The notes beneath the pieces are model-generated. The model was not told where the DNA came from. It worked only from the letters and a program-made list of their open reading frames with translations, and ran no database searches. 64,000 bases of DNA from Escherichia phage F13. Within the stretch, counting starts at the first letter, position 1; every line of letters starts with the position of its first letter. Made by a program: the position numbers and the translations under genes. Below, piece by piece: positions 1 to 42,341 of this stretch. The stretch lies in the sequence record OP745617, one strand, 5' to 3'.

Positions 1-20
1 TCTTTATAAGGTACTCGACC

Positions 21-368
21 ATGGCTCATGTTAAAGACGAAGTGTTGTTTGGCGCAGAGATTAAGAAACGTGTCAGAGAAATGGCAGGAGAAGAAAGAGT
101 GAAGTCGCTGCGAAAAGGTTTTGATCACATCAATGGTGTATCCGGCACGAAGGAGATGGGCGTGTTGGTAAAAGACATTCGCATTGGCGATGTCATGGTC
201 ATCGACCGACAAGCACGAGTCGTTATCCAGGTGCAACCGAACGATGATGAAGGATGTGTCCTATTGAAGCTGAAGAAGCTTTCATCCAGCCCAGCAAAAG
301 CCGTCATCAAGAAGGTCTGGCCCGAAGGATTACGCAAACTCATTCGTCGACCCGTGGAGAATGTATAA
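21..368 (+). CDS. hypothetical early protein (115 aa)
   Basis: ORF in a tightly packed plus-strand array; stop overlaps the next start (TAATG). Confidence 0.4.
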   Translation: MAHVKDEVLFGAEIKKRVREMAGEERVKSLRKGFDHINGVSGTKEMGVLVKDIRIGDVMVIDRQARVVIQVQPNDDEGCVLLKLKKLSSSPAKAVIKKVWPEGLRKLIRRPVENV

Positions 369-604
369 TGGAAGATTATATCAATGCGATGTACATGGCA
401 TTCTATGTCGTGCAACTTCCCAATGGCGCGGTATTTTATGGCGAGTATACCTTTGACGTTCAATATGACGTTTCAGAGCGTACAGTGTTAACAAGGGAGT
501 TGATTGCGGACCTTAAGGACGACATAAAACGCGTCGCGCGGCAGCAGTTCAATTTGGATGACACCGTCATCGTTCGAATTACCGGAATAACAGAGGTGCA
601 GTGA
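368..604 (+). CDS. hypothetical early protein (78 aa)
   Basis: Internal ATG of ORF 254..604 placed at the stop of the upstream gene; translationally coupled. Confidence 0.35.
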   Translation: MEDYINAMYMAFYVVQLPNGAVFYGEYTFDVQYDVSERTVLTRELIADLKDDIKRVARQQFNLDDTVIVRITGITEVQ

Positions 605-933
605 TGACCCGTGATCAGATACTCGCCGCGCATGAGCGTGAGAAGGTGAAAGAGATTTGTAAAAGGCACGCATTATTTGCTGACTCTTATGTGTTCTTAA
701 AGTCTTGCATCAAACAAAACGCAAGGATGGATAACACTGTATTGACATTCAACCTTTTGTCTAACGGAGCAAAGCTTGATGCAATATGCGGGTGCAGAAT
801 TGCCAGCATGACGTTTGAACGAGGTGCTCACAAAGACTCTTTCTTCTATCAATTCTCCCACCGGACGGGTGATACAAAGATAACAAGGACAAGGCACGAG
901 ATAGAGATTGACCTACTCCACTATGTAAAATGA
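601..933 (+). CDS. hypothetical early protein (110 aa)
   Basis: ATGA overlap with upstream gene; several Cys residues. Confidence 0.4.
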   Translation: MMTRDQILAAHEREKVKEICKRHALFADSYVFLKSCIKQNARMDNTVLTFNLLSNGAKLDAICGCRIASMTFERGAHKDSFFYQFSHRTGDTKITRTRHEIEIDLLHYVK

Positions 934-949
934 ATGTCAAAGGTGATTT

Positions 950-1144
950 ATGAGTGTTAAACTAGACATACAGAAAACTCTTGATAAGGCCGCTGCAATA
1001 AAGAACTTCATGGATTGTTATGCCAGTTGCACGCTTTATGGAAGCGTGCCAAACGGCGACGTAAGGCCGGAAAGCATGCTTGAGTGGCTTGTTGAACATC
1101 GTTACATCATCGACATAGTTGATGAATACATAAAGCAGAAATGA
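950..1144 (+). CDS. hypothetical early protein (64 aa)
   Basis: ORF in the early gene array. Confidence 0.35.
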   Translation: MSVKLDIQKTLDKAAAIKNFMDCYASCTLYGSVPNGDVRPESMLEWLVEHRYIIDIVDEYIKQK

Positions 1145-1168
1145 ATATCAAAAAGGTGAGCTAAATGC

Positions 1169-1197
1169 TTGCCTTTTCTTTTATCAATACTTATACT
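1169..1197 (+). promoter_or_regulatory. sigma70-like promoter (-35 TTGCCT, 17-bp spacer, -10 TATACT)
   Basis: Hexamers read directly; part of a conserved ~80-bp block also present at 2399-2476; followed by GAGGTG RBS and ATG at 1229. Confidence 0.5.
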
Positions 1198-1228
1198 CTT
1201 TTCATCAAGACGAAAAGTGAGGTGAATT

Positions 1229-1546
1229 ATGATTTACTTAGGCATCGACAAGGAACAAGACGAGCGGTTAGGAAGCGTGTTAAACGTAGACTTGAACACA
1301 GCTGTACACATCAAGCCTTGGCCAGATGGCCACCCCGACGTAGTTGTACCCGTTGCGCCTTGGACGCGTTACGTTGCCATTGACAATAACGGCCTTGTTC
1401 ATTGTTATTCAGAAAGGCCAACGTATTTCGAGATGTACCGCGAATGGCTCATGACTGGATGGGCAAAGGTGCGCTGTTGCGGCGAAGTCGGTCTGGATGG
1501 CTGGAGCTTCGAGGCTAGTGAATCGTGTGTCGAGGTGCAATTATGA
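1229..1546 (+). CDS. hypothetical early protein (105 aa)
   Basis: ORF with GAGGTG RBS immediately downstream of the promoter block. Confidence 0.45.
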   Translation: MIYLGIDKEQDERLGSVLNVDLNTAVHIKPWPDGHPDVVVPVAPWTRYVAIDNNGLVHCYSERPTYFEMYREWLMTGWAKVRCCGEVGLDGWSFEASESCVEVQL

Positions 1547-1761
1547 ATGGCGCGCTGGGTAAGTTGTCTTTCAACAAGCGTAATGAGCTGCGCATGGTGT
1601 CGCGCTTTCAGTTTGTATTGAACGCAATGTCGAATATTGCCATCACGATGCTTCGCGCTGATTGCCCTGCTGAAAAGCGTGAGACTTTATTTGAACGTCA
1701 CAACCAATTACGAAAGGCTGCTTATAAGCTGCAGCAATATGCTATGGAGTATGCAAAATGA
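1543..1761 (+). CDS. hypothetical early protein (72 aa)
   Basis: Internal ATG overlapping upstream stop (ATGA). Confidence 0.4.
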   Translation: MNGALGKLSFNKRNELRMVSRFQFVLNAMSNIAITMLRADCPAEKRETLFERHNQLRKAAYKLQQYAMEYAK

Positions 1762-2141
1762 GAATGAAGCGTTGCCCTTACTGCCACGATGTGATGCACC
1801 TTCCACACGAAGAGTTTGTGCAGCACATGACTAACTGTGATAAGAATCCTAATAGCGAAAGCCAGCTTGAAGAAAGAATGTTCTTGGTGTCATTCAAAGC
1901 TTCTGCTTATGAAGTGCAACGTTCTTACGGCGCACCAAGTACGATTTACTGTCCAACAACATTGAGAAGTGATATCGACTCAATTCAGCTTGCTGCCTGG
2001 ATTAACGTTAAGGAAGGAATCACGCCGCACTTTATTGCGCGCATCCAATCTCAGATTCTACAAATGAAGCGCGAATACAACCGTGACATCACTGAAGTGA
2101 AGGTGTTGTCCATCACGCCAATGAATAAGGAGTTGCCGTGA
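1758..2141 (+). CDS. hypothetical protein with Cys/His cluster (127 aa)
   Basis: ATGA overlap; N-terminal CPYCHDVMHLPHEEFVQHMTNC suggests a zinc-binding motif. Confidence 0.45.
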   Translation: MRMKRCPYCHDVMHLPHEEFVQHMTNCDKNPNSESQLEERMFLVSFKASAYEVQRSYGAPSTIYCPTTLRSDIDSIQLAAWINVKEGITPHFIARIQSQILQMKREYNRDITEVKVLSITPMNKELP

Positions 2142-2398
2142 ACAAGGGTCCGATGACTAAGTTAGCCGTTGCCGCGCGGAAGCTTCGACAAGCCGTTAAT
2201 GGGTCGCGCCCCGTGGTGTTAACACTCGACGACGCAAAGGCACTGGTAGAGCTACTCGACGAGCACAACCGACGCAAGAATCTGGAGAACACATTACGCT
2301 GGCGCGTTACTCCGAAAGGGCGGGAGAGTGAAAAGAAAGCTTACTTGCGACGCAAACTAAGGTCGGTCGGCCTCCACGAAGAGGCGAAGAATATTTAA
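2138..2398 (+). CDS. hypothetical basic protein (86 aa, GTG start)
   Basis: GTG start overlapping upstream stop; Arg/Lys-rich C-terminus. Confidence 0.4.
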   Translation: MNKGPMTKLAVAARKLRQAVNGSRPVVLTLDDAKALVELLDEHNRRKNLENTLRWRVTPKGRESEKKAYLRRKLRSVGLHEEAKNI

Positions 2399-2420
2399 TT
2401 CAAAAAGGTGATCTAAATGC

Positions 2421-2448
2421 TTGCCTTTTTATTTGCCTGTATTATACT
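2421..2448 (+). promoter_or_regulatory. sigma70-like promoter (-35 TTGCCT, 16-bp spacer, -10 TATACT)
   Basis: Second copy of the conserved promoter block; followed by AAGGAG RBS and ATG at 2477. Confidence 0.5.
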
Positions 2449-2476
2449 TAGTTCATCAAGCAAAGGAGATTTGATT

Positions 2477-2779
2477 ATGAGTTACGACGAAAGGTTTGGC
2501 AGAAGTGGATTATTTCACGATGCTGTATGTAAGGACAGCCAAGATGTTGTCTGCGTATTCAACGTTGATTCTTACGGCGTGCTCAAACCGTTTAAAATCG
2601 GTGAGACATACGAATTGTTTCACGGATGGTTGACGCGTCGCAACAACCTTCCTGATATGGAAGTCTGGTGGATAGAATATAAGGGCCAGGCCCATCGCTG
2701 CAAGGTTGTAGAGGTGCGCGGCGTGAACTACTATCAATCTGTTATCAGCGGCTTTGTTTTTAAAGAGGGTGAGCTATGA
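2477..2779 (+). CDS. hypothetical early protein (100 aa)
   Basis: ATG with AAGGAG RBS; the longer ORF start at 2417 lies inside the promoter and is rejected. Confidence 0.45.
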   Translation: MSYDERFGRSGLFHDAVCKDSQDVVCVFNVDSYGVLKPFKIGETYELFHGWLTRRNNLPDMEVWWIEYKGQAHRCKVVEVRGVNYYQSVISGFVFKEGEL

Positions 2780-3081
2780 GTACCGAAGCAATGAAGAAAA
2801 AGATTTTGAACGCTTTGCAAGAAGCCGTGAACTGTGGTGCAATTAAAGAGTTCAAGGAGACGCAAGAAGGCGGTGAGCCAGTATTCTTCTTTAAGAATAA
2901 AAAGGACGGTGTAGCGGCAATCATGCTATTAAAGAATAGTGATGATACATTTATTCTTTGCGTCGGCGGTTACGACCTTGTCACTGATGATGCATTCATC
3001 ACTTGTGTCGACGGCCTTAATCCTATGTTGACATTTGAGCGTCGCGCCATCCGTGTTGCAACGTTTGGAGGGAATTTATGA
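2776..3081 (+). CDS. hypothetical early protein (101 aa)
   Basis: ATGA overlap. Confidence 0.45.
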   Translation: MSTEAMKKKILNALQEAVNCGAIKEFKETQEGGEPVFFFKNKKDGVAAIMLLKNSDDTFILCVGGYDLVTDDAFITCVDGLNPMLTFERRAIRVATFGGNL

Positions 3082-3263
3082 GTACCGAAGTCCATAACGC
3101 TTCAGCAATGGTAAGCTTTTACCGTAACAAAGGCGTGTCACTCGTTAAAACGCCGCAAGGCATGATGTTCTTTGGCACGCGATTCCTTAAGGCTTCGGAG
3201 CGTGAAACGCTGTCCAAGTTTGACCAGAAAACATTGCACGCAGTTTGGAGAAGACAACAATGA
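3078..3263 (+). CDS. hypothetical early protein (61 aa)
   Basis: ATGA overlap. Confidence 0.35.
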   Translation: MSTEVHNASAMVSFYRNKGVSLVKTPQGMMFFGTRFLKASERETLSKFDQKTLHAVWRRQQ

Positions 3264-3553
3264 GATTAAGCCTAGCTCAGATTCAGACATTATATCGCAT
3301 GGAAGACGGCACATCATACATGTTGCGCGGCGACCGCAAGAAGGCTTATGAGAAACGGCCTTCATTGTTTCACGACGTTAACGCGCCATCAATCCCTGTC
3401 TTATTCCGGCTGGGCCTTGTTGACTGGAAAGTGCCAGGAGAGAAAGACCCAACTCGATATTCACCGGTTGTGATGACAAAGAAAGGTCGTGCAGCATTAA
3501 AAGAAATTAAAGAGCATATGGCTGGAGAAAAATACTATGACATCAAATCTTAA
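3260..3553 (+). CDS. hypothetical early protein (97 aa)
   Basis: ATGA overlap; motif GAGAAGACAACAATG also precedes the gene at 3718. Confidence 0.4.
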   Translation: MRLSLAQIQTLYRMEDGTSYMLRGDRKKAYEKRPSLFHDVNAPSIPVLFRLGLVDWKVPGEKDPTRYSPVVMTKKGRAALKEIKEHMAGEKYYDIKS

Positions 3554-3717
3554 GGCCCGTTTGTTATTCATCAAGCCGCATGTGCCATATAAGATTAGTA
3601 AGCGCACCTGGCTTAACATTTACAACCGCAGCGGCGACCGTTGTCTGTACAAGGCGAAGCGACGCAAGAAGGTATATTCTTACACAACATCTATCAAATA
3701 AATAGGAGAAGACAACA

Positions 3718-4221
3718 ATGAAAATAGAACAACTCGAAGCAGTATTGGAAATGGCCGTAAAAGCTGGCGCAATCAGAAGCTATCGCCGCGAGAAGTCGGA
3801 AAACGATATGGTGTTTTGTCGCAACTTCTATATCGTCGGCAACCTTAATGACCACTACACCATCGAGTGGTATACTAACATGATGACGCTTAAGTCGCGC
3901 ACCATGGAGCTTTGGTGTGATGACATCTGCTTATCCAACACCCATCCATCCTACGACGTTGCATTGGCATTCTATTACGGAAGCCGTCAACCTGTCGCCC
4001 ACATCGGTGAGAAGCATGAGCATCTTAAGGCGCGACCAGAGGAATCAATGGAAGGTTGGATTGAATGGGCTGGCGGCAAGAATCCGGTGCCTGGTAAGAA
4101 GGTCATGTTGATGTGGAGGAATGAAGGGAAGTCTTCTTATTCATCCAATTCAGAAGGATGGCTATGGCAGCACAACGGAAGCGTTTATGACATCATTGCT
4201 TATCGCGTCGTGGAGGAATAA
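3718..4221 (+). CDS. hypothetical protein (167 aa) sharing a C-terminal domain with 5103..5528
   Basis: RBS GGAG; C-terminus WIEWAGGKNPVPGK...DIIAYRVVEE parallels the 5103..5528 product. Confidence 0.5.
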   Translation: MKIEQLEAVLEMAVKAGAIRSYRREKSENDMVFCRNFYIVGNLNDHYTIEWYTNMMTLKSRTMELWCDDICLSNTHPSYDVALAFYYGSRQPVAHIGEKHEHLKARPEESMEGWIEWAGGKNPVPGKKVMLMWRNEGKSSYSSNSEGWLWQHNGSVYDIIAYRVVEE

Positions 4222-4562
4222 TGGAAGAGCAAGAAGGCCGTGAGCTAACATTTGACGAGCAGATGCAAGAGCTTCAGCGCACATCGCCGCTGCGCGGTAA
4301 GGTTGTTGACATTGAGGCGAGCGAATCCAATCTCACCCAGTGGCGACTCAAGTGCACCAGCACAAGCAAGGATATGTTAAGCTTCAAAGTCGGTCAAACC
4401 TATTTGCTTTATGAGGCAAAAGGACTTATTATTGATGGAAGGCAAATCGTCTTCACGGTAGTCAGCGGAATGCGTTGGTTCGTGAAGCGTGATGTCGAGG
4501 GCCGTGATATGTTTGTCGCAGGCTTTCCAGAAACAAGATTCCAATTGGAGAAGGTTAAATGA
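4221..4562 (+). CDS. hypothetical protein (113 aa)
   Basis: Start overlaps upstream stop. Confidence 0.45.
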   Translation: MEEQEGRELTFDEQMQELQRTSPLRGKVVDIEASESNLTQWRLKCTSTSKDMLSFKVGQTYLLYEAKGLIIDGRQIVFTVVSGMRWFVKRDVEGRDMFVAGFPETRFQLEKVK

Positions 4563-4888
4563 AATTGAAATGGTACGTGGACCCTGAGCCGACAGGCCAA
4601 TACAGGTCATTCCAACGTCGCGGCTGGCCGATTTGTTACAGCGGCAATCCCGATAAAGAAGATTGCGAGATGCTCGCCGCGATAGTAAGTCTTAACCATG
4701 ACGGCTATGAAGGCCACTACGCGAGAGCAACCAACCTTCGGCTCAAGGTGCGCATCCATTTCAAGGTCGCAGGCGAGGACCGCACCGGACTCTCCAAAGA
4801 AGAGTTCAGCAGCATTGCCGAAGCAAAGGCATGGCTAAAGGCATTCTACAAGGCCAATCCTAAATTTTATCCAACTAAGGGTGCATAA
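4559..4888 (+). CDS. hypothetical protein (109 aa)
   Basis: ATGA overlap. Confidence 0.45.
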   Translation: MKLKWYVDPEPTGQYRSFQRRGWPICYSGNPDKEDCEMLAAIVSLNHDGYEGHYARATNLRLKVRIHFKVAGEDRTGLSKEEFSSIAEAKAWLKAFYKANPKFYPTKGA

Positions 4889-5106
4889 TGACCGATAAAC
4901 AATACGCAGTCGGGCAACGTGACATCGAGCAACTCGACGAGGGCGGTTATTATACACGCCACATCTATGCTATGACTCAAGAAGGACTTTACAGCAAGTC
5001 GGACATCGCCGCTGAACTGGCCCATCGCGACTTGCAAATTGATCTTCTCAAGATAGAAGTGCAGAACTTACGAAACACCCTGTTAAACACCTGGAGCTTA
5101 AAATGA
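4888..5106 (+). CDS. hypothetical protein (72 aa)
   Basis: Start overlaps upstream stop. Confidence 0.4.
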   Translation: MTDKQYAVGQRDIEQLDEGGYYTRHIYAMTQEGLYSKSDIAAELAHRDLQIDLLKIEVQNLRNTLLNTWSLK

Positions 5107-5528
5107 TACAGCGTTACGACCTGACATATGATGTGGCATCGGACGATTTCGCCGTCACTCCCGTTCCAGAAAGTCATGAAGGACGTTTTGTTGCATATGA
5201 GGACTATGAATCACTGCTCAAGCTTAATGAGTCGCTAACAAAAGAGATTGAGCAATACCACGAGCGCATCAAAGTCGCTGAAGATGTTATCAAGCTTTTT
5301 AGCGAGGCTGTTGAGAAATACAAGGAGCGCAACGTACCGATTAAGGAGGAAGCGTGGACCGTGTGGCTTGGTGGTGAGAATCCTGCACCTGGCGAGATTG
5401 TTGAATACAAGCTGCGCAATGGAGGTGATAAAGTATTGTCGAGACTTTCTGACCATCTTCACTGGGGTCATATAGGAGCACTCAAAGGCAGCGACATCAT
5501 TGCTTATCGGGTCGTTAAGGAGGGGTGA
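5103..5528 (+). CDS. hypothetical protein (141 aa), paralogous C-terminal domain
   Basis: C-terminus WTVWLGGENPAPGE...DIIAYRVVKEG similar to the 3718..4221 product. Confidence 0.5.
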   Translation: MIQRYDLTYDVASDDFAVTPVPESHEGRFVAYEDYESLLKLNESLTKEIEQYHERIKVAEDVIKLFSEAVEKYKERNVPIKEEAWTVWLGGENPAPGEIVEYKLRNGGDKVLSRLSDHLHWGHIGALKGSDIIAYRVVKEG

Positions 5529-6061
5529 TGGGTAACGATGCAGGATGGGGCAAGCCGCGATACTCAAAACTTGCCCACTACTTTGACGACGGCGAGCAAA
5601 TCAGCTTGTGCGGTAAATTCAACAAAGGCAATACAGAGTTGACCGATGCTCAAGAAATGGAATCAAGTCTGACAATTGGTGATTGCTCTAAGTGCAGAAA
5701 GGCATTATATGAGTTATTGACTCTAAGGGGATTGAAAGCGGCAAAATCAAGGGATGAATGGGTCATCAACGTCTGTGAAGGGAATCCAGAATTGATGGAT
5801 GAATTGCTGAAAACAGATGCCGTTAATGCCATTTTCAAAAGGCATTATAAAACTTGTATGCGTTACAAGATGAATGATGATATTATTTTTATGGTATTAT
5901 CTTATTCAAGGAGCACAATGGACGTCAAAAAGCTTCGACAATATCGCCACAAGGTCATGTGTGAATTGCGCCGTTTAGGAGTTATTGTGGATAATAATGT
6001 CATTAAAACGGAGTTAAAGAAGCGTGATAAAAGGAATGGTGACTGGAAGGTCAGCGGATAA
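5525..6061 (+). CDS. hypothetical protein (178 aa) with possible Cys cluster
   Basis: ATGA overlap; SLCGKF...DCSKCRK spacing suggests metal binding. Confidence 0.5.
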   Translation: MMGNDAGWGKPRYSKLAHYFDDGEQISLCGKFNKGNTELTDAQEMESSLTIGDCSKCRKALYELLTLRGLKAAKSRDEWVINVCEGNPELMDELLKTDAVNAIFKRHYKTCMRYKMNDDIIFMVLSYSRSTMDVKKLRQYRHKVMCELRRLGVIVDNNVIKTELKKRDKRNGDWKVSG

Positions 6062-6319
6062 ATAAACACTGTTTACGTGTTTTGAAGAATGGAATGTGTG
6101 CAATGGGTCGCTTTATGCGGCCTTTTGTCGTTTGGGTCATGTTTTGCTATGGAATAATTATGAGGTTGTGTTTTATTTATTAATTGTGCGGAAATATTTA
6201 GAAATATATATAAACAGGATTGTTAATATTTTAATAGTTTATGGCTATTGGTCCGTGGTGTTTGTTAGATTCTATCTATGGATTGGATTTTCTTGGGTCG
6301 TGAAACGTGGTTTTGAACA

Positions 6320-6690
6320 CATTTGATACGCCTAAAATACGGTTAAAAATTAAGCGTATCATGGCTGCAGGCCGCGCCGTTCCTGGATTCCTCTTTTCCA
6401 AATTGGTACACCCTTACGTCATGATACGTCATGGTTTTTTATCCGTATCAGTGTACAACCCTTGCCGCGCCTGGCTTGTACATTAATCTTACGGATGATA
6501 CGGATAAAACTGAGCATCGTTATATATAGAATTCGAAAAATTAATTAACTCCATTTTAAAAACATTTATATTAATTTTTTTCATATCCTCATACTTATGT
6601 TAATTTATATATTTAACGTATCATCCGTAAGATATAAGTAAAAACAAAGACTTGCGGCAATACGGATGATACGTCATGATACGCTTCAAC
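6320..6690. repeat. iteron-like module: direct and inverted ATCCGTATC / GATACGGAT 9-mers flanking an AT-rich core (copy 1)
   Basis: Repeats read directly (tatccgtatca, ttacggatgatacggat, cgtatcatccgtaag, tacggatgatacgtcatgatacg); AT-rich core 6530-6615; homologous module at 22845-23135. Confidence 0.7.
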
Positions 6691-6874
6691 CAGCCAGCAG
6701 CGGCTAAGTCGTTGATTTGCATAACAAGCGGCAAAAGGGATGGATTTCTTTTATACGTATCAAACAGTACACCACGCACCACGGTCCGTTATCCATTCAG
6801 CAATATGATTTGTGTACGTTTATAGCCATAATGAACATCAATCTGCACTTGAATATAATGTCCATCCATTGTAT

Positions 6875-8095
6875 AATTCACACTATTAATTTGCACTATG
6901 GGATTTTGCACTATGAGTCAAGATTATGTAGCGATGCCTGAAGACTTTGAAGACCCGCGATTCGCAGAGCACAATCAGGCTTTATTCGATGAGTTCATTG
7001 ACCTTGTTATTCAGGGTCATGACATGCGCGCAGCTTTTGCACTAGTATTTGGAATGGAAGTTGCAACGGATAACTACACTGGCCAGCGAATCCTTTGCAC
7101 GCAACGCAATCCATACTACAAGATGCGCTTCAAAAAGCGTATGGAAGAGATGCCACTCAAGGATTTGTGGAGCGTAAAAGGTGCAATTCACAATTTGGTT
7201 AAGCTTGTTCGTGATCCAGAAGTCGCGGCGTCAGCCAAGCTTAATGCTATTCGTGAACTGAATATCATCTACGGCATCACGATGATTGATGAAAACGGCA
7301 ATAGTAAAATGGGCCGTTCCATGGACGATTTCTACAAGGATTTTGGAGAGGCGGCCAAAGAAGGTGAGCAATTCTCCCGCCACTAGCCAATTTGCACTAT
7401 AAAACGGCCCTAGAACACATTTTCTCCAATTCTAGGGCCATCGGTAATACGACGGGGAAGGTTACAAACATAAACGCGTTAGAAAGTGTATTATTATAAG
7501 TCATCTTTTAGTCACCTTACGTAACAATTTACGACCTTCAACCGTCCAATCGAACGACTCCACCAGCAGATTCGCACTATAACCTAAGACGATGCGTCCC
7601 TTCTCGTTATCGACCCGCCAACAAGTCTCGAATAGCATTCGATTTGCACTATTAACTATTGCCGCAACTCGCGTAGGATAAGCGCAATTTGAACTATGGT
7701 CGTAAAGGGATAAGGTGCGACCACTTCCGATGGACAACGTAGCGATGAGAATGAGCGTATTCATAAGCCACCAATTTGCACTATGAAAAGCGACCCCGAA
7801 GGGCCGCCATTCGATTAGATAATCTGGAAGGTATAGGATTTGTTGCCGAACTCAAAGTTCAAGCGCCCAGCTTCCTTAAGCTTCATGCGGAAGCGAATGT
7901 GCTTGCTATCCGGCAAGCCCAGCACGGCGAACGCTACGCGGACCGATTTGAACTCGCCTACACCCTCGACCATAACGCCGTTACGGGTGAGACGCTTTTG
8001 CGCCACTTCCTTATTATCCCAACTTTTTGCAATACCTTCGCTATTCGAACGGCGATGGGAAGGAGTTCCATTTTGCACTACGCAATTTGCACTAT
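6875..8095 (+). repeat. array of about 10 copies of the 12-bp motif (A/G)ATTTGCACTAT, all on the plus strand
   Basis: Copies at 6875, 6888, 6903, 7389, 7569, 7641, 7686, 7773, 8071, 8083 (some with one mismatch). Confidence 0.7.
6898..7386 (+). CDS. hypothetical protein (157-162 aa); speculative small terminase or DNA-binding protein
   Basis: ORF starting inside the first motif copies (alternative ATG at 6913); the terminase idea is only from size and the adjacent repeat array. Confidence 0.4.
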   Translation: MGFCTMSQDYVAMPEDFEDPRFAEHNQALFDEFIDLVIQGHDMRAAFALVFGMEVATDNYTGQRILCTQRNPYYKMRFKKRMEEMPLKDLWSVKGAIHNLVKLVRDPEVAASAKLNAIRELNIIYGITMIDENGNSKMGRSMDDFYKDFGEAAKEGEQFSRH

Positions 8096-8441
8096 CGTTT
8101 AGACCGCTCTTAACGAAGGCTTCATACTCTTCGTCGGTCATCGCGTCGAGTTCTTCCTGGGTCGGCTCGGCCTTTTTAACGACCGCACGCGCCTTATGCG
8201 TTTTTACATCGCTGGACACTTCCTCGCGCGACTTCGCTTCGGGGATGGGCGATTCGTTGGACGGCTCATCGAGCGCGTTTAAGGACTCGATTAACGCGAT
8301 TACGCGAGTCTCGGCGGTACGGCGGTCCGCAAATTTCTTAATCGGCTTCGAACCGGAATTTGCATTATAAAATGCAACGAGGTCGGCGGTCTTAGTTGCG
8401 ATAACGTCGCCGCTAGTCGAGAAACGATTTAAGCTAACCAT
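7815..8441 (-). CDS. hypothetical protein (208 aa)
   Basis: Protein-like composition (acidic stretch EEELDAMTDEEYEAF); the antisense plus-strand ORF looks like a shadow. Confidence 0.45.
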   Translation of the reverse strand: MVSLNRFSTSGDVIATKTADLVAFYNANSGSKPIKKFADRRTAETRVIALIESLNALDEPSNESPIPEAKSREEVSSDVKTHKARAVVKKAEPTQEELDAMTDEEYEAFVKSGLNDSANCVVQNGTPSHRRSNSEGIAKSWDNKEVAQKRLTRNGVMVEGVGEFKSVRVAFAVLGLPDSKHIRFRMKLKEAGRLNFEFGNKSYTFQII

Positions 8442-8521
8442 AATGAACTCCTATTTGTTAGGGCGCTAGGCGCGAAAGAATTTTATTAAAGCGCCGCGCA
8501 CGACGCTCTAAAAATCCTCTC

Positions 8522-8806
8522 TTACGCTTCGACGAGGGAGAAGGTCTCAAATTCTTCTTCGCCCATAACGAGTAAGATGTTACCGATTTCGACCGCTTCG
8601 AAGAAGTATCCGTTAACGTTTACTTCGAAGGCTTCGCGGTCCGATTCCGGTAACGCCGCGTAAAGTTTAAAAGCCTCGGCGACCGTTACCCCACCCGCCT
8701 CGATGGTCTGGTCTACGTTCGCGGCGTAGACTTCGGATAAAATTTGTTTTACGCCGTAGTTCTCGACGATAGCGTTACGGATGGAAGAAACGTTAAGAAT
8801 AGCCAT
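8522..8806 (-). CDS. small protein (94 aa), paralog family member
   Basis: Aligns with the 9744..10034 product (SxIR, VY..NVD..IE, NG[YF].[FY]..EIG); own promoter upstream. Confidence 0.5.
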   Translation of the reverse strand: MAILNVSSIRNAIVENYGVKQILSEVYAANVDQTIEAGGVTVAEAFKLYAALPESDREAFEVNVNGYFFEAVEIGNILLVMGEEEFETFSLVEA

Positions 8807-8874
8807 TTTAAACTCCTAGTTGGGAGAGGCGTTAACGACCTATTCGCTAACTCATCCCGTCCCGATATGAGTAC

Positions 8875-8902
8875 ATTATAATATAGTGTAGAAAAAAGTA
8901 AA
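8875..8902 (-). promoter_or_regulatory. sigma70-like promoter on minus strand (-35 TTTACT, 16-bp spacer, -10 TATAAT)
   Basis: Reverse complement of 8875-8902; inverted copy of the promoter module at 9345-9373. Confidence 0.5.
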
Positions 8903-8946
8903 GCACTTTTTCGATAAAAATGCGATAAATTATTTTATCTTTTTTC

Positions 8947-8974
8947 TTTACTTCTTCGTACACTCGCGTATACT
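8947..8974 (+). promoter_or_regulatory. sigma70-like promoter (-35 TTTACT, 16-bp spacer, -10 TATACT)
   Basis: Diverges from the minus-strand promoter; drives the gene at 9031. Confidence 0.45.
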
Positions 8975-9030
8975 TGTTTATATCGAGACGGGCGATGGCC
9001 CTTCCTTCTACTAGCATCGGGAGCTTTATT

Positions 9031-9333
9031 ATGACTACTTTAATCTCTTCCATCCTTACTTACGACGAAGACCGTTTAACCGTTCGCTCTCTTATCGCCG
9101 CCGTTAACGCCGAACTAGAATCTAGCGCCATTAAGGTCCGCGCGGTTGCCTTCGTCGGTCTTTCCTTCGACGATATCAAGTACGCCGAACGTAGCGCCAT
9201 CCGCTTCGCGAAGACCGACGACGAAGCCGTTACCCTTATCGAGACGGTTACTCCGCGCGGCGAAACGTTAATTATCGTCGAGTATATCGACGTAGAAGGC
9301 GATAAGGCTTATAAATATTTTATCGCAAAATAA
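9031..9333 (+). CDS. small protein (100 aa), probable distant member of the same paralog family
   Basis: ATG with GGGAG RBS; 3' 200 bp of this gene is duplicated in the tandem repeat. Confidence 0.5.
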   Translation: MTTLISSILTYDEDRLTVRSLIAAVNAELESSAIKVRAVAFVGLSFDDIKYAERSAIRFAKTDDEAVTLIETVTPRGETLIIVEYIDVEGDKAYKYFIAK

Positions 9334-9744
9334 CGAAAAAGTGCTTTACTTCTTAGTACACTAAGACTATAATGTTTTATATCGAGAGGGGATGAGGTAG
9401 CGAATAGGTCGCTACCCTCCCGACTAACTAGGAGAATATTACGCGCGGTTGCCTTCGTCGGTCTTTCCTTCGACGATATCAAGTACGCCGAACGTAGCGC
9501 CATCCGCTTCGCGAAGACCGACGACGAAGCCGTTACCCTTATCGAGACGGTTACTCCGCGCGGCGAAACGTTAATTATCGTCGAGTATATCGACGTAGAA
9601 GGCGATAAGGCTTATAAATATTTTATCGCAAAATAACGAAAAAGTGCTTTACTTCTTAGTACACTAAGACTATAATGTTTTATATCGAGAGGGGATGAGG
9701 TAGCGAATAGGTCGCTACCCTCCCGACTAACTAGGAGAATATTA
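9139..9744. repeat. tandem direct duplication, 2 x 303 bp (9139-9441 and 9442-9744)
   Basis: Near-identical units read directly; each carries the gene 3' end, promoter (TTTACT-17-TATAAT at 9345-9373 and 9648-9676), leader hairpin and RBS. Confidence 0.85.
9442..9639 (+). pseudogene. promoter-less 3' fragment of gene 9031..9333 created by the tandem duplication
   Basis: Copy of the C-terminal coding part; at the junction the RBS is followed by ACG rather than ATG. Confidence 0.5.
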
Positions 9745-10034
9745 TGATCACTTTATCCGCTATCCGTGCCGCTCGCGTCGAAACTTCCGAAAACTCTAAC
9801 GTATTTGGCGAAACCTTAGAGAGCGTTTATCTCTCTAACGTTGACGCGATTATCGAGTCTATTTATGAGCCGATCAACTTCCTCGACCTTTACAAGTATC
9901 GCGATGAGGACATCGTGTCCTACCGCGTAACGATTAACGGCTTCGTTTATACGATTACCGAAATCGGCGGCGAATATCTCGCTGTACCGCAACTCGGCGG
10001 CGAAGTAACTTACTTTAAAATCGTAAGCCTTTAA
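9744..10034 (+). CDS. small protein (96 aa), paralog of 8522..8806
   Basis: AGGAG RBS; clear alignment to the 8522..8806 product. Confidence 0.55.
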   Translation: MITLSAIRAARVETSENSNVFGETLESVYLSNVDAIIESIYEPINFLDLYKYRDEDIVSYRVTINGFVYTITEIGGEYLAVPQLGGEVTYFKIVSL

Positions 10035-10045
10035 GGAGAAGAAAA

Positions 10046-10255
10046 ATGATTAATATGAATAACTCTCTTAACGCGCGCGCCCATCGCACCGCCGTCATCG
10101 ATATGTTCCGTGAGCTTAAGGACTTATGCGATAATATGAACGCGATGTTATCCATCGGCGGCTGGGGATACGAAGAAGAAGTTAAATATGCGGTTATGCG
10201 TCGCCGTCGCGATAACGTCCTTGGGCAAATTAAACGCGCCGGATTATTCCTTTAA
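10046..10255 (+). CDS. hypothetical small basic protein (69 aa)
   Basis: ORF with AAGGAG RBS; RRRRD motif. Confidence 0.4.
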   Translation: MINMNNSLNARAHRTAVIDMFRELKDLCDNMNAMLSIGGWGYEEEVKYAVMRRRRDNVLGQIKRAGLFL

Positions 10256-10281
10256 TTATAATCAACCACCGTTACTAATAG

Positions 10282-10306
10282 GCCGCGCTTAGTCGCGGCT
10301 TTTCTT
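10282..10306 (+). terminator. Rho-independent terminator
   Basis: GCCGCG-cttagt-CGCGGC stem-loop followed by TTTTCTT. Confidence 0.6.
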
Positions 10307-10419
10307 CGTCCCTATCTCGGTGCGCTCCTACGCGAAAACTCCTTTATCCTTCCCTTCGTCGTCGCATAATCTTCGTCGATATGCGCCTTAGTTCGCATAA
10401 CAGGTATTACGTTAAATGG

Positions 10420-10960
10420 AGAACATCGCGTAAGTCCTTGTTTTATATAGACACCTATATCGGACCGTTAGGGCGGGTCGCGTAAGTCGTTGTTTTATAA
10501 AGGCGCAAAACTTTCCCTTCGTTCCGAACTAAAACGAGGAATATGCCGACCCTTCGTCCGAAAATAGTACGCATGCGAAATTACATGCATCTAGAATAAT
10601 CCCCACAGATATTATCCTACACGCAATCATTCGCTTTCGAATCATTATGCTTCATATTATTATGCGTCGAATCATTCGCTTTCGAATTGTAACGCTGGAA
10701 ACTGTAACGGCGATTGATTATTGCGTTCGTGTGGTTTTTATGGCATGGGTCTTTTGGTGCGTTTTGCTACTTGATGGAATTTGCGGTACACTAATCAAAA
10801 TACGACACATTTAGTCTACTAACTTTTCAAAGAAAAAGTCCTGGACAGTACCGTACTATTTTGTACCCACAGGAAATTTGCAGTACACTCCTGCGCGCGG
10901 CAGGCAAAATAAAGGGCCGCACCAAGCGACCCACGATTCACGATTCACGGTTAAAGCAAC
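10420..10960. repeat. noncoding region with several short direct repeats
   Basis: cgcgtaagtc(c/g)ttgttttata x2 (10425-10500), aatcattcgctttcgaat x2 (10628-10700), ggaa(a)tttgc(g/a)gtacact x2 (10774, 10872), cacgattcacgattcacgg (10934). Confidence 0.6.
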
Positions 10961-10969
10961 ATCCACCCA

Positions 10970-11416
10970 CTATTCACTCTTATGGGCATCACCAAATCCA
11001 TCAGCAATCTGGCTGATCAACGACTCAATGGACACAGTTTTACCAATTGATCGAGCGGTTATGGCGAGCATATTATCAATCAAACCATGATTGACACAAT
11101 ACTCTGGAGATTTAGAATCATCTTCAGAACAACCAAAAAGCTGGTCGCGCAGACTTTCAAGAGAACGCTCAATATTTTCCAACTTCTCTTCTAAATCGGA
11201 TTGGCGACGTAAAACCCATGTTAAGTCTCGGTTGCCGACTTCCAACCCATCAGAATAGCAAGGTGGAGCGTCAATTTTGATGCTGGAACCAAAAGCAGTG
11301 CCGCTGCCTTTAGTATAAGTATGGCTCATAGAATCATTTTTATTTGACATATCATTACCTTTAATATTTGGGTGATTAACAATAACTATAATAAAGCCGC
11401 ATAGCGCGGCATTCAA
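10970..11416 (-). CDS. hypothetical protein (148 aa)
   Basis: ORF; coiled-coil-like central region. Confidence 0.4.
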   Translation of the reverse strand: MNAALCGFIIVIVNHPNIKGNDMSNKNDSMSHTYTKGSGTAFGSSIKIDAPPCYSDGLEVGNRDLTWVLRRQSDLEEKLENIERSLESLRDQLFGCSEDDSKSPEYCVNHGLIDNMLAITARSIGKTVSIESLISQIADGFGDAHKSE

Positions 11417-39602: not shown

Positions 39603-42341
39603 ATGCAAAAGTTTGACACAAACCTGTTGCAAAACCTTAAGTGGATGCAGAACAATGCGCCAAACATTACATCTTTGGTGCAAAAGAAAAGTGACTGGTA
39701 TGAAAGATACCAAGATCAGTTTTGGACTGACTGGTACAATAACATTTTTAACATTGACACTTGTGATGCAATGGGCATTTATATTTGGTGCGACATTCTT
39801 TGCATACCAAGAGACTTTGTGGACTTAAGCAATTATGAGCACAACTGGGCGTTTGGACCGACGCGCGACAACTTTGAAGGTGCGGACAACATCGGCGGCA
39901 ACTTCTTTGGTGCTGGCGGGAAGGTTGTAAAGAATATCGAAGAAGCGCGCATACTTCTTAAGCTTCGTTATCTGACGCTTACAAGTGATGGCCGCATCGA
40001 AAGTATCAATCGCATGCTTAAGTGGATTTTCAACCGTGGAGAGGCTTGGGATTACTCTTCATCACGCTACGCATATGTGACCGACAATACTCAAGGCGCA
40101 GTGTCTTCGTCTGAATCAACCAATGGCTCATTCCTTCTGTACGACTGGCAAGGGTCAACTGAGATTCAGCACGATTATAAGCAGATACTTTTAAGCCATG
40201 GCAACAACGCCGGACTGACCATCAGCGGAGTATCAGGCACCGTGTCACGGATGGCGCATCCAGATTGGTACTCATGGGGGAATGGCTCCGGCACAGGTCT
40301 TGTCGGCGGCGACACCAGACAGTATGGCGGCCCTGATTACTATGGACAGTTGTGTGGTGATTACCCAGGCGAGGCCATAGAGAATTTTGCCAACGCAGTA
40401 AGGGTAGTCAAGACTGCTTCAAGCGGTGAGCCTGTGTATTCTTTGGCAGATAATCCAAGCGCCCAATCCATTGCGCTTCCTTCGCAGGCTGGCGTTAACG
40501 TTTGTTATAGCTTCTACATAAAGGTGCTTTCTGAAAATGTCGCTTCTGTTTCGGTTACAGAGAATAGTGATGCATCTAGTAATGGAAAGTTGTTTGACCC
40601 AGTCACTGGGCAGTTCAACTTGGACCCGTATTTGAGCTATTTCATCACAGGCAAATTCGATGGAGTAAGAAGGGAATCAAGCCGTGGTGGCATCAAAGCA
40701 ATCGGCGGCGATTGGTATCGAATCTGGATTGTAGAGCAGACGGCAACCGCTGCGTCTGGAGTAAGTACCAGCTTTTCAATAGAGTTGAAGGCGACTGCCG
40801 CTGGATCAACTCAAACTCGTGAATTGCCTGAAGGGTCTGATGCACTTCTTTTTGGATACTCGATTTGCGTCTGCGACCCTGTTCAGAATCCAAATGGACC
40901 TGAGCCTTATTTTTATGGAACGCAAAACCCTCCTTCTGACGGAACAGCAATACTGTCTGTAACGGCGGGAACGCTCAACAACATCTCCTGTGCAAACGGA
41001 CCGCTGACGACAAGAAACGGTGTGGTTGGCGAGTCATTCATGCAACCTGGCTCATCACTTGCATACTCTGGCTCAATCGGCGGCTACCCGTACCCAGGGA
41101 ACGCCACATTGATTGCAGAGACTGACGGCATCAGACGCTCATGGAACGTTAGCAGGCTTGATGGAGTACCGCCGCCGCCGACCGCTGACTATTACATGGA
41201 ATACGTCATCGGACCTTATTTCGCCAACAACCTGTCAGACAACTTTAAGACGCTAGTTGGCGACAGGGATGAAGGATTCTTGCCAGCAAATGCCGGAATA
41301 CGCTGGCAGCGTTACCAAGAAGTCGCAGACTTATCTGATATTGATTTGACTGTCAGCAACATAACAGACACGCGAGTAGGATTTGAAACGGAAGGTGTTG
41401 CTTGGATTAACACTGACGGTATCATCAGAGTTGGCGGCATTAACGAGTGGCCGCTGAACAACTTCAACGGTGTGATACGCCAGCTTGAATCTTTGAAAGG
41501 TGTAAACCAGGTCATCGACGGCGCGCTTGTCAACGACTATTCAATCTCAAAAGCATCAAGAGATGACTTTGGTCGTGAAATCCCACGTGCCGCAATCACT
41601 AACTACTGGAGATACACACAGCCCAATGACGGCACATCTTTTGGCAATATCATTGAGGATGGCGCAAACACGGTCACAGCGACGCCAATCAGCGGTGTAC
41701 CCAACCAGTTCCCATCATTCAAGCTTTCCGCTACAATAGGGACTGTGCCAGCGTCCGGTTATGCACGCGCTGTACTTGCTACTAAATACACTGGCACCCT
41801 GACTGGTCCTTTATCATTCATTGCGGTAGTCAAAAACAACACGGTTAACGGTCAAAAACTTTTTGTAACTGTACCGGATGGGATGGGTGGCTATATCCCT
41901 AAATTCTACAACATAGGCGCAGGTGATTTGCAACGTATCGAAATTGACCTTGCCGCTGAGATTGTTGAAGGCGCTACCTGGGATGGATCAACAGGCGGCA
42001 TCAGCATCGGTTTGATATCAGGGAAAGACTTGCCGACCGAAGTTGGTACGACTCTTGAACTTGATATTTTAAGCTTGATGCTTGTGTCTGGTAATACGAT
42101 GAATGCGCTTGCAATTTCAACAAGCGAAGATTTCGCAAAGAAGACTGCGACTTCTATATACATCAAAAACCCAGGATCACTTGCCACTGGAGTTCAATTG
42201 ATTGCTTCTAATGGTGATGTTGTAGCAACAGTAAACTTTCCGAGAAGTGCTGCTGGTGGTTATGTTTCAAGCATGAACATAACTGACTTAACTGGTGATT
42301 GGGCATCAACCCTTTTATCAAAAATTAAATACATCGTGTAG
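39603..42341 (+). CDS. large tail fiber / baseplate-associated structural protein (912 aa)
   Basis: Size, Gly/Ser/Thr-rich composition, position before the fiber gene. Confidence 0.5.
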   Translation: MQKFDTNLLQNLKWMQNNAPNITSLVQKKSDWYERYQDQFWTDWYNNIFNIDTCDAMGIYIWCDILCIPRDFVDLSNYEHNWAFGPTRDNFEGADNIGGNFFGAGGKVVKNIEEARILLKLRYLTLTSDGRIESINRMLKWIFNRGEAWDYSSSRYAYVTDNTQGAVSSSESTNGSFLLYDWQGSTEIQHDYKQILLSHGNNAGLTISGVSGTVSRMAHPDWYSWGNGSGTGLVGGDTRQYGGPDYYGQLCGDYPGEAIENFANAVRVVKTASSGEPVYSLADNPSAQSIALPSQAGVNVCYSFYIKVLSENVASVSVTENSDASSNGKLFDPVTGQFNLDPYLSYFITGKFDGVRRESSRGGIKAIGGDWYRIWIVEQTATAASGVSTSFSIELKATAAGSTQTRELPEGSDALLFGYSICVCDPVQNPNGPEPYFYGTQNPPSDGTAILSVTAGTLNNISCANGPLTTRNGVVGESFMQPGSSLAYSGSIGGYPYPGNATLIAETDGIRRSWNVSRLDGVPPPPTADYYMEYVIGPYFANNLSDNFKTLVGDRDEGFLPANAGIRWQRYQEVADLSDIDLTVSNITDTRVGFETEGVAWINTDGIIRVGGINEWPLNNFNGVIRQLESLKGVNQVIDGALVNDYSISKASRDDFGREIPRAAITNYWRYTQPNDGTSFGNIIEDGANTVTATPISGVPNQFPSFKLSATIGTVPASGYARAVLATKYTGTLTGPLSFIAVVKNNTVNGQKLFVTVPDGMGGYIPKFYNIGAGDLQRIEIDLAAEIVEGATWDGSTGGISIGLISGKDLPTEVGTTLELDILSLMLVSGNTMNALAISTSEDFAKKTATSIYIKNPGSLATGVQLIASNGDVVATVNFPRSAAGGYVSSMNITDLTGDWASTLLSKIKYIV

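Follow-up and report, generated by a model that had tools for sequence, protein, structure and literature searches.

The DNA analyzed in this study, hereafter the window, is a stretch of 64,000 nucleotides from Escherichia phage F13 (sequence record OP745617), and it belongs to Wifcevirus, a genus of E. coli and Shigella myophages. Two adjacent copies of a 303-bp unit were found in its early region, where they cover the end of one small gene and the sequences that precede the next. The genes, promoters, and RNA elements of the region are as follows:

8522 to 8806, minus strand: early gene of 94 amino acids, a distant paralogue of gene B.
8875 to 8902, minus strand: P_minus, a divergent promoter of the same type as P_B with the same kind of hairpin leader, serving the gene at 8522 to 8806.
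8947 to 8974, plus strand: P_A, a promoter of the same type as P_B, upstream of gene A.
9031 to 9333, plus strand: gene A, 100 amino acids, intact, of no known family; relatives annotate a 303-nt CDS.
9345 to 9373, plus strand: P_B copy 1 (TTTACT-N17-TATAAT), which heads an untranslatable fragment.
9385 to 9425, plus strand: leader hairpin copy 1, with an 8-bp core stem (9396-9403 with 9409-9416) and the loop AUAGG.
9648 to 9676, plus strand: P_B copy 2 (TTTACT-N17-TATAAT), the native promoter of gene B.
9688 to 9728, plus strand: leader hairpin copy 2, identical to copy 1.
9744 to 10034, plus strand: gene B, 96 amino acids, of no known family, a weak paralogue of the minus-strand gene at 8522 to 8806.
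10046 to 10255, plus strand: gene C, 69 amino acids, with a match to phrog_10377 (labelled 'transcriptional regulator') and a predicted two-helix hairpin.
10280 to 10301, plus strand: terminator-like hairpin, at the end of the putative A-B-C early transcription unit.

The promoters of the region share a common design. P_B matched the sigma-70-type consensus at 10 of 12 positions with a 17-nt spacer, and a GTACACT motif in the spacer and a TATATCGRGA start region were common to P_B, P_A, and P_minus. Within the 64 kb, the full module (CTTTACTT..GTACACT..TATAAT..TATATCGRGA) was confined to the P_A, P_minus, and P_B sites, all of which lie in the direct terminal repeat (DTR) of the genome. The leader hairpin at 9385-9425 had a minimum free energy of -21.3 kcal/mol (z = -2.1), and its core stem was 100% paired in nine distinct leaders from the window and its relatives, with compensatory changes at two pairs. 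The 8-bp stem with its invariant AUAGG loop was common to the P_B and P_minus leaders, or two of the three. An Rfam 15 search of positions 6500 to 11000 returned no match at E <= 1, the leader hairpin included. In the immediate-early transcripts, the hairpin could act in processing or stability, or serve as a binding site for a regulator. From gene A to the end of gene C, the sole terminator-like site downstream on the plus strand was the one at 10280-10301, past gene C, so that genes A, B, and C appear to form a single early transcription unit with promoters inside it.

Sequence searches of PHROGs, Pfam, and the PDB found no family for genes A and B, and a single-sequence AlphaFold model of the gene B product was unusable (pLDDT 45). 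Gene B shares 28% identity with the minus-strand gene at 8522-8806 (E = 1e-5). The promoter-leader regions of the same two genes are homologous as well and form inverted repeats (8804-8868 and 9682-9746) of 65 nt with 77% complementarity. Together, these similarities suggest that a cassette of promoter, leader, and gene was copied in inverted orientation long ago. Other changes of content were observed among the relatives. For example, RCIP0363 (PV464739.1) carries a 177-bp insert with a 50-amino-acid open reading frame (locus 1535-1722) between the gene A stop and P_B, corresponding to approximately 9333/9334 of the window, and this moron is bordered by a 15-bp direct repeat, AAAATAACGAAAAAG. 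The same insert is probably present in AV128 and ECO71P1, as judged from similar match lengths. Additionally, the minus-strand gene or gene C is missing in some relatives. The insert and these gene losses mark the DTR region as a hot spot of cassette gain and loss.

The duplication is composed of the following elements:

9139 to 9441, plus strand: tandem unit 1, with gene A codons 37-100 and the stop, P_B copy 1, the leader hairpin, a Shine-Dalgarno (SD) site, and the A of a former ATG.
9442 to 9744, plus strand: tandem unit 2, 100% identical to unit 1; its last base is the A of the gene B ATG.
9441 to 9443, plus strand: novel junction (9441/9442), reading ACG where copy 2 has ATG (9744-9746).
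9442 to 9636, plus strand: copy of the 3' part of gene A, spanning 65 codons (stop included) and lacking an ATG, GTG, or TTG start in frame.

Direct string comparison found the two units, arranged head to tail, to be the same at 303 of 303 bases, and Tandem Repeats Finder (TRF) reported a period of 303, 2.0 copies, 100% matches, and a score of 1212. No other direct repeat longer than 43 nt was present within the 64-kb window. A chance origin is excluded by the exact identity of the units and by the absence of any other direct repeat above this length. A tandem duplication had been described here in an earlier note made from the same sequence, where the units were called near-identical; the identity proved to be exact. 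The contents that the note assigned to each unit (the 3' end of gene A, a promoter, a hairpin, and a ribosome-binding site) were confirmed by reading of the sequence and by the promoter and hairpin analyses, as was its reading of ACG in place of ATG at 9441-9443.

The unit begins at codon position 1 of gene A codon 37 and includes no complete gene, being composed of the 65 codons at the 3' end of gene A together with the promoter and 5' UTR of gene B. Its breakpoints fall in two different genes, and both genes A and B are intact. Each unit holds one AGGAG ribosome-binding (SD) site, at 9430-9434 and 9733-9737. The repeat length of 303 is a multiple of three, yet the copied tail of gene A still has no in-frame ATG, GTG, or TTG after the preceding stop, which agrees with the description of the fragment as non-translatable in the earlier note. 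Translation of the fragment was rejected on this ground, and a start at the ACG would give an out-of-frame peptide of at most 18 codons. Transcription of the fragment from P_B copy 1, which the note had also proposed, would be expected from a consensus promoter that is conserved across the genus.

The junction reads ATTA/CGCGCGG, or in its longer form GAATATTA/CGCGCGGTT, and string comparison found 0 bp of microhomology on both sides. The left flank ends in ..GGTC and the unit in ..ATTA, while the unit starts with CGCG.. and the right flank with TGAT.. Hence, unit 1 is preceded by C, whereas the unit ends in A, and unit 2 is followed by T, whereas the unit begins with C. Several routes to such a junction were considered and rejected. 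Unequal crossing-over between the repeated promoter modules does not fit breakpoints that lie outside the modules, and slippage at microhomology does not fit a junction where none is present; the closest ATTA in common is out of register by 5 nt. Restriction and ligation were rejected since the junction does not fall at the cut of the SspI site AATATT (9435-9440), and a link to the physical genome ends was rejected since these are 2.9 kb and 1.0 kb away.

The genomic setting of the duplication was established by comparison with other members of the genus, and it is summarized by one further feature:

6553 to 10754, no strand: direct terminal repeat (DTR), present once in the window and containing the duplication; placed from the ends of phage vB_EcoM_SP13, the Mansfield DTR, and WFC and WFH.

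Wifcevirus genomes are 66 to 72 kb in length (PMC11990801), and a terminal repeat of about 3.7 kb has been described for WFC and WFH (PMC6563267). The top match of the window, vB_EcoM_SP13 (OP352608.1, 72,384 bp; hereafter SP13), has ends that are identical over 3899 bp. Window positions 1-6552 correspond to the right end of the SP13 unique region, while window position 6553 corresponds to SP13 position 1. This alignment shows that the assembly behind the window is circularly permuted, with its two DTR copies merged into one. The single unit of SP13 maps to positions 2587-2889 of the 3899 DTR positions, and the duplication in the window is 2.9 kb from the left end of the DTR and 1.0 kb from its right end. 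The PhageTerm-predicted DTR of Mansfield (1-3673) spans the homologous genes, and the records of vB_Eco4M-7 and EC150 begin approximately 92-96 nt from the start of the window. The position of the duplication inside the DTR had been missed in the earlier note.

Two other features of the DTR were observed. An open reading frame of 162 amino acids at 6898-7386 (plus strand) has a Mansfield homologue annotated as the terminase small subunit from HHpred evidence, where the coding sequence corresponds to window 6913-7386. Since this frame lies in the DTR, the gene of the small subunit is part of the terminal repeat, and that of the large subunit lies about 9 kb away in the unique region. In addition, two sets of imperfect direct repeats (10426-10502 and 10609-10696) occupy the non-coding last 350 bp of the DTR, before the boundary at 10754. 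One is a 25-nt repeat spaced by 52 nt, and the other is a repeat of about 43-45 nt that contains AATCATTCGCTTTCGAA and has a TRF period of 15. These repeats could be packaging, terminase, or replication signals.

Over the 63.7 kb that the window shares with SP13, only four differences were found: the 303-bp duplication, one single-nucleotide polymorphism (SNP), and two 1-bp differences at the seams of the DTR. SP13 has one unit in each of its DTR copies, at 2587-2889 and 71072-71374. Relatives were also compared, a check that the earlier note had proposed, and every other relative examined was single-unit like SP13, with a P_B copy number of one. Exactly three promoter modules were found in each of seven related phage genomes, one Logan contig, and three IMG/VR contigs; the module occurs at three conserved places in each relative examined, whereas the window has four. 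The presence of a single unit in SP13, which is one SNP away, and in the other relatives shows the duplication to be private to the window assembly and younger than the one-SNP divergence.

Searches for the junction gave the same picture. Among 50,697 INPHARED phage records, no alignment crossed the junction, and its halves mapped in single-unit order in SP13. No match to a 40-mer spanning the junction was found in IMG/VR, GTDB genome contigs, or JGI metagenome contigs, nor one to an 80-mer in complete E. coli genomes. Searches with a 39-mer carrying the window allele of the SNP described below, with the exact Arg498 protein, and with an open reading frame across the junction likewise returned no record. 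Exact matches to genes B and C were found only in SP13 and in one single-unit Logan contig. The literature on SP13 yielded nothing beyond an ICTV list.

The remaining differences from SP13 bear on the quality of the assembly and on its lineage. The SNP is the following:

41311, in the plus-strand gene at 39819-42341: G in the window, T in SP13.

It changes codon 498 of an 840-amino-acid structural protein (phrog_4797), which is CGT (Arg) in the window and CTT (Leu) in SP13. The Leu498 codon was found in SP13, TH32, Bas99, WFC, and FEC19, and the Arg498 allele of the window is therefore derived. The change may be a host-adaptation change or a sequencing error. The seam differences are single extra bases in SP13 (68485/68486 and 3900, against window 6553 and 10755-10756), located where its second DTR copy is attached, and SP13 reads CCAATTTT against CCATTTT and CTTTTTGG against CTTTTGG in the window. 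The seven related phage genomes and the Logan contig share the reading of the window at the right seam, as does vB_Eco4M-7 at the left one. By this comparison, the two SP13 bases look like construction errors in the SP13 record, and with SP13 as the odd one out at the seams, the window assembly looks accurate at the base level.

Two readings account for most of these observations, and on the sequence alone a real duplication cannot be separated from a contig-overlap artefact. The first, given an even chance, is that the window holds a genuine and very young tandem duplication, independent of homology, in the immediate-early region of a Wifcevirus and inside its DTR. This even chance includes the small share given below to positive selection. 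The duplication would have arisen in a lineage one SNP away from SP13, by illegitimate end-joining or a replication template switch, either in a replicating genome or in a concatemer. Because the DTR is copied from one template at packaging, the duplication would be placed at both ends of the virion DNA, and the packaged length would increase by about 0.6 kb, or 0.8%.

The expected effect of such a duplication on transcription is limited. The first 365 nt or so of a transcript from P_B copy 1 would be non-coding, being composed of the leader, the ACG pseudo-start, the untranslatable gene A tail, and the second promoter region. As no terminator-like site lies between the copies, this transcript should continue into genes B and C, to the hairpin at 10280-10301. 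Genes B and C would then be read from three tandem promoters (P_A, P_B1, and P_B2) instead of two, and since the DTR occurs twice in packaged DNA, each virion would carry four P_B copies instead of two. Such a change is probably neutral or raises the expression of genes B and C modestly, and promoter occlusion could cancel any such gain. Two perfect 303-bp repeats should be readily lost by recombination, so the duplication, if real, is recent or weakly favoured.

Several observations argue for a real duplication. The window equals SP13 apart from the SNP, the two seam bases, and the insertion, its assembly is clean at the base level, and SP13 shows one unit in each DTR copy. With Arg498 being derived, the source is identified as an independent derivative carrying two derived changes. 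The breakpoints lie in two genes and disrupt nothing, and the neighborhood has a history of cassette gain and duplication, as seen in the paralogous promoter-leader-gene modules and in the 177-bp moron of RCIP0363. The length of the repeat is also outside the usual overlap lengths of assembler k-mers, which are 55, 77, 99, 127, and 141. The false repeats described in DTR phages measured about 79 bp (PMC10438801), and experimentally evolved phages have been reported to combine a duplication with a missense change in a structural protein (PMC6365445, PMC9391042).

Against this reading, the junction was absent from all collections searched, and it shows zero microhomology, whereas documented amplifications in T4 show 6-10 bp (PMC9391042). 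The unit includes no whole gene and thus offers no obvious dosage benefit. Perfect identity at an arbitrary junction is also exactly what an untrimmed overlap of contig ends would leave after rotation, and the internal position of the DTR shows that the assembly is clearly permuted. Short-read assemblies of DTR phages are also known to contain false repeats in the DTR or close to it (PMC10438801).

The second reading, a close contender that is nonetheless held to fall somewhat short of an even chance, is that the repeat is an artefact of assembly or curation. Under it, a 303-bp overlap of the contig ends was left untrimmed after circularizing and rotating, and the phage DNA has one unit like SP13. 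The contig of the DTR-collapsed circular genome would have begun at window 9442 and ended at the equivalent of 9744. The 100% identity and the lack of microhomology are as expected for an arbitrary contig end, although they would equally fit a real duplication that is independent of homology. A single P_B copy is seen in the near-identical SP13 and in each of the other relatives examined. The internal DTR of the permuted genome indicates that a rotation step took place, and a window start within approximately 92-96 nt of the vB_Eco4M-7 and EC150 record starts is compatible with re-orientation to a reference. Furthermore, repeats near or inside DTRs were reported in 7 of 10 short-read assemblies of DTR phages, most of which were disproved by Sanger sequencing (PMC10438801).

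This explanation meets difficulties of its own. An overlap of 303 bp is not a standard de Bruijn overlap, so an overlap-layout assembler or manual joining is needed, while a de Bruijn assembler could have produced the junction only from real reads that contain it. At 2.9 kb and 1.0 kb from the two ends of the DTR, the junction lies away from the coverage steps where contigs tend to break. The assembly is otherwise clean, with no other repeat, and it agrees with the relatives where the SP13 record deviates.

A special case of the genuine duplication, considered unlikely, is that it was also positively selected, with the extra P_B lifting expression of early gene B, of the putative regulator gene C, or of both. 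Under the same unlikely case, the benefit could instead come from the additional hairpin, as a second site for binding or processing. In either form, the duplication and the L498R change would together mark a host-adapted or laboratory-evolved derivative of an SP13-like phage. In favour of selection, only two derived differences separate the window from an SP13-like state, one of which, the missense change, alters a residue that is the same in SP13 and four other relatives. The duplicated segment also holds a complete promoter-leader-SD module that is conserved across the genus, and adaptive tandem amplification has precedents in phages (PMC9391042, PMC6365445). In contrast, no whole gene is amplified, gene B is without a match in Pfam, PHROGs, or the PDB, promoters in tandem can disturb one another instead of adding up, and the duplication is a single extra copy with no ladder.

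The earlier note had suggested either a recent event or active homogenisation, of which recency stands (SP13, one SNP away, has a single unit, and the relatives have one P_B each), whereas an old duplication kept identical by gene conversion was rejected as extremely improbable, as it has only the perfect identity of the copies in its favour and no older duplication was found in SP13 or in any other Wifcevirus genome or contig examined, each with three promoter modules.

The consequences differ between the readings. If the duplication is real, it captures a structural change that happened only days to months ago in the immediate-early region of a phage genus that has received little study. Phages with one promoter and two promoters, otherwise isogenic, would then form a natural pair with which genes B and C and the hairpin leaders could be probed. 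In the unlikely event that it was selected as well, it would represent a small-scale, promoter-only version of the viral 'genomic accordion' in a host-adapted, SP13-like Wifcevirus derivative with L498R. If the repeat is instead an artefact, the record needs correction, and neither the additional promoter nor the gene fragment ought to be annotated or treated as variation. The main value of the observation is that of a curation flag, and its value for biology at large is small.

The type of event is a known one, being either a tandem segmental duplication, as in T4 tifA and the EfV12-phi1 tail fibre, or a known kind of assembly error. It is ordinary under either reading, with nothing in it to surprise a specialist. 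The T7 promoters A1, A2, and A3 and the pre-early promoters in the T5 terminal repeat are strong early promoters, arranged in tandem or in clusters at the injected end. The window resembles these arrays in having similar sigma-70-type promoters clustered in a terminal region with small early genes. The copies in T7 and T5 are ancient and diverged and have contexts of their own, whereas the additional P_B copy in the window is exact, private, and placed at the head of a gene fragment.

As in the assembly artefacts of DTR phages described by Elek et al. (2023), a perfect repeat is located in or near the terminal-repeat region of an assembly that was linearised or rotated (PMC10438801). Those artefacts were close to the DTR and about 79 bp long, on the scale of assembler k-mers (PMC10438801), whereas the window repeat is 303 bp long and lies 1-2.9 kb from the DTR ends.

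In the Enterococcus phage EfV12-phi1, in-frame tandem duplications of 1.8 kb arose in a tail-fibre gene during coevolution (Wandro et al. 2019, PMC6365445). That system is similar to the window in combining a recent tandem duplication with otherwise near-identical genomes and few missense SNPs in structural genes (PMC6365445). However, the EfV12-phi1 duplications lie inside a coding gene, change its protein, and were verified by coverage, PCR, and long reads (PMC6365445), while the duplication in the window is regulatory or non-coding and is known here only from an assembled sequence.

In T4, the 'accordion' amplification of dmd-tifA takes no more than a few passages to appear (Srikant et al. 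2022, PMC9391042). As in the window, the parent lacks the repeats, which are arranged head to tail with identical sequence and include the promoter of the downstream early gene (PMC9391042). The T4 amplifications involve microhomologies of 6-10 bp, a whole beneficial gene, several copies, and balancing deletions elsewhere (PMC9391042), whereas the window duplication has zero microhomology, two copies only, no complete gene, and no compensating deletion.
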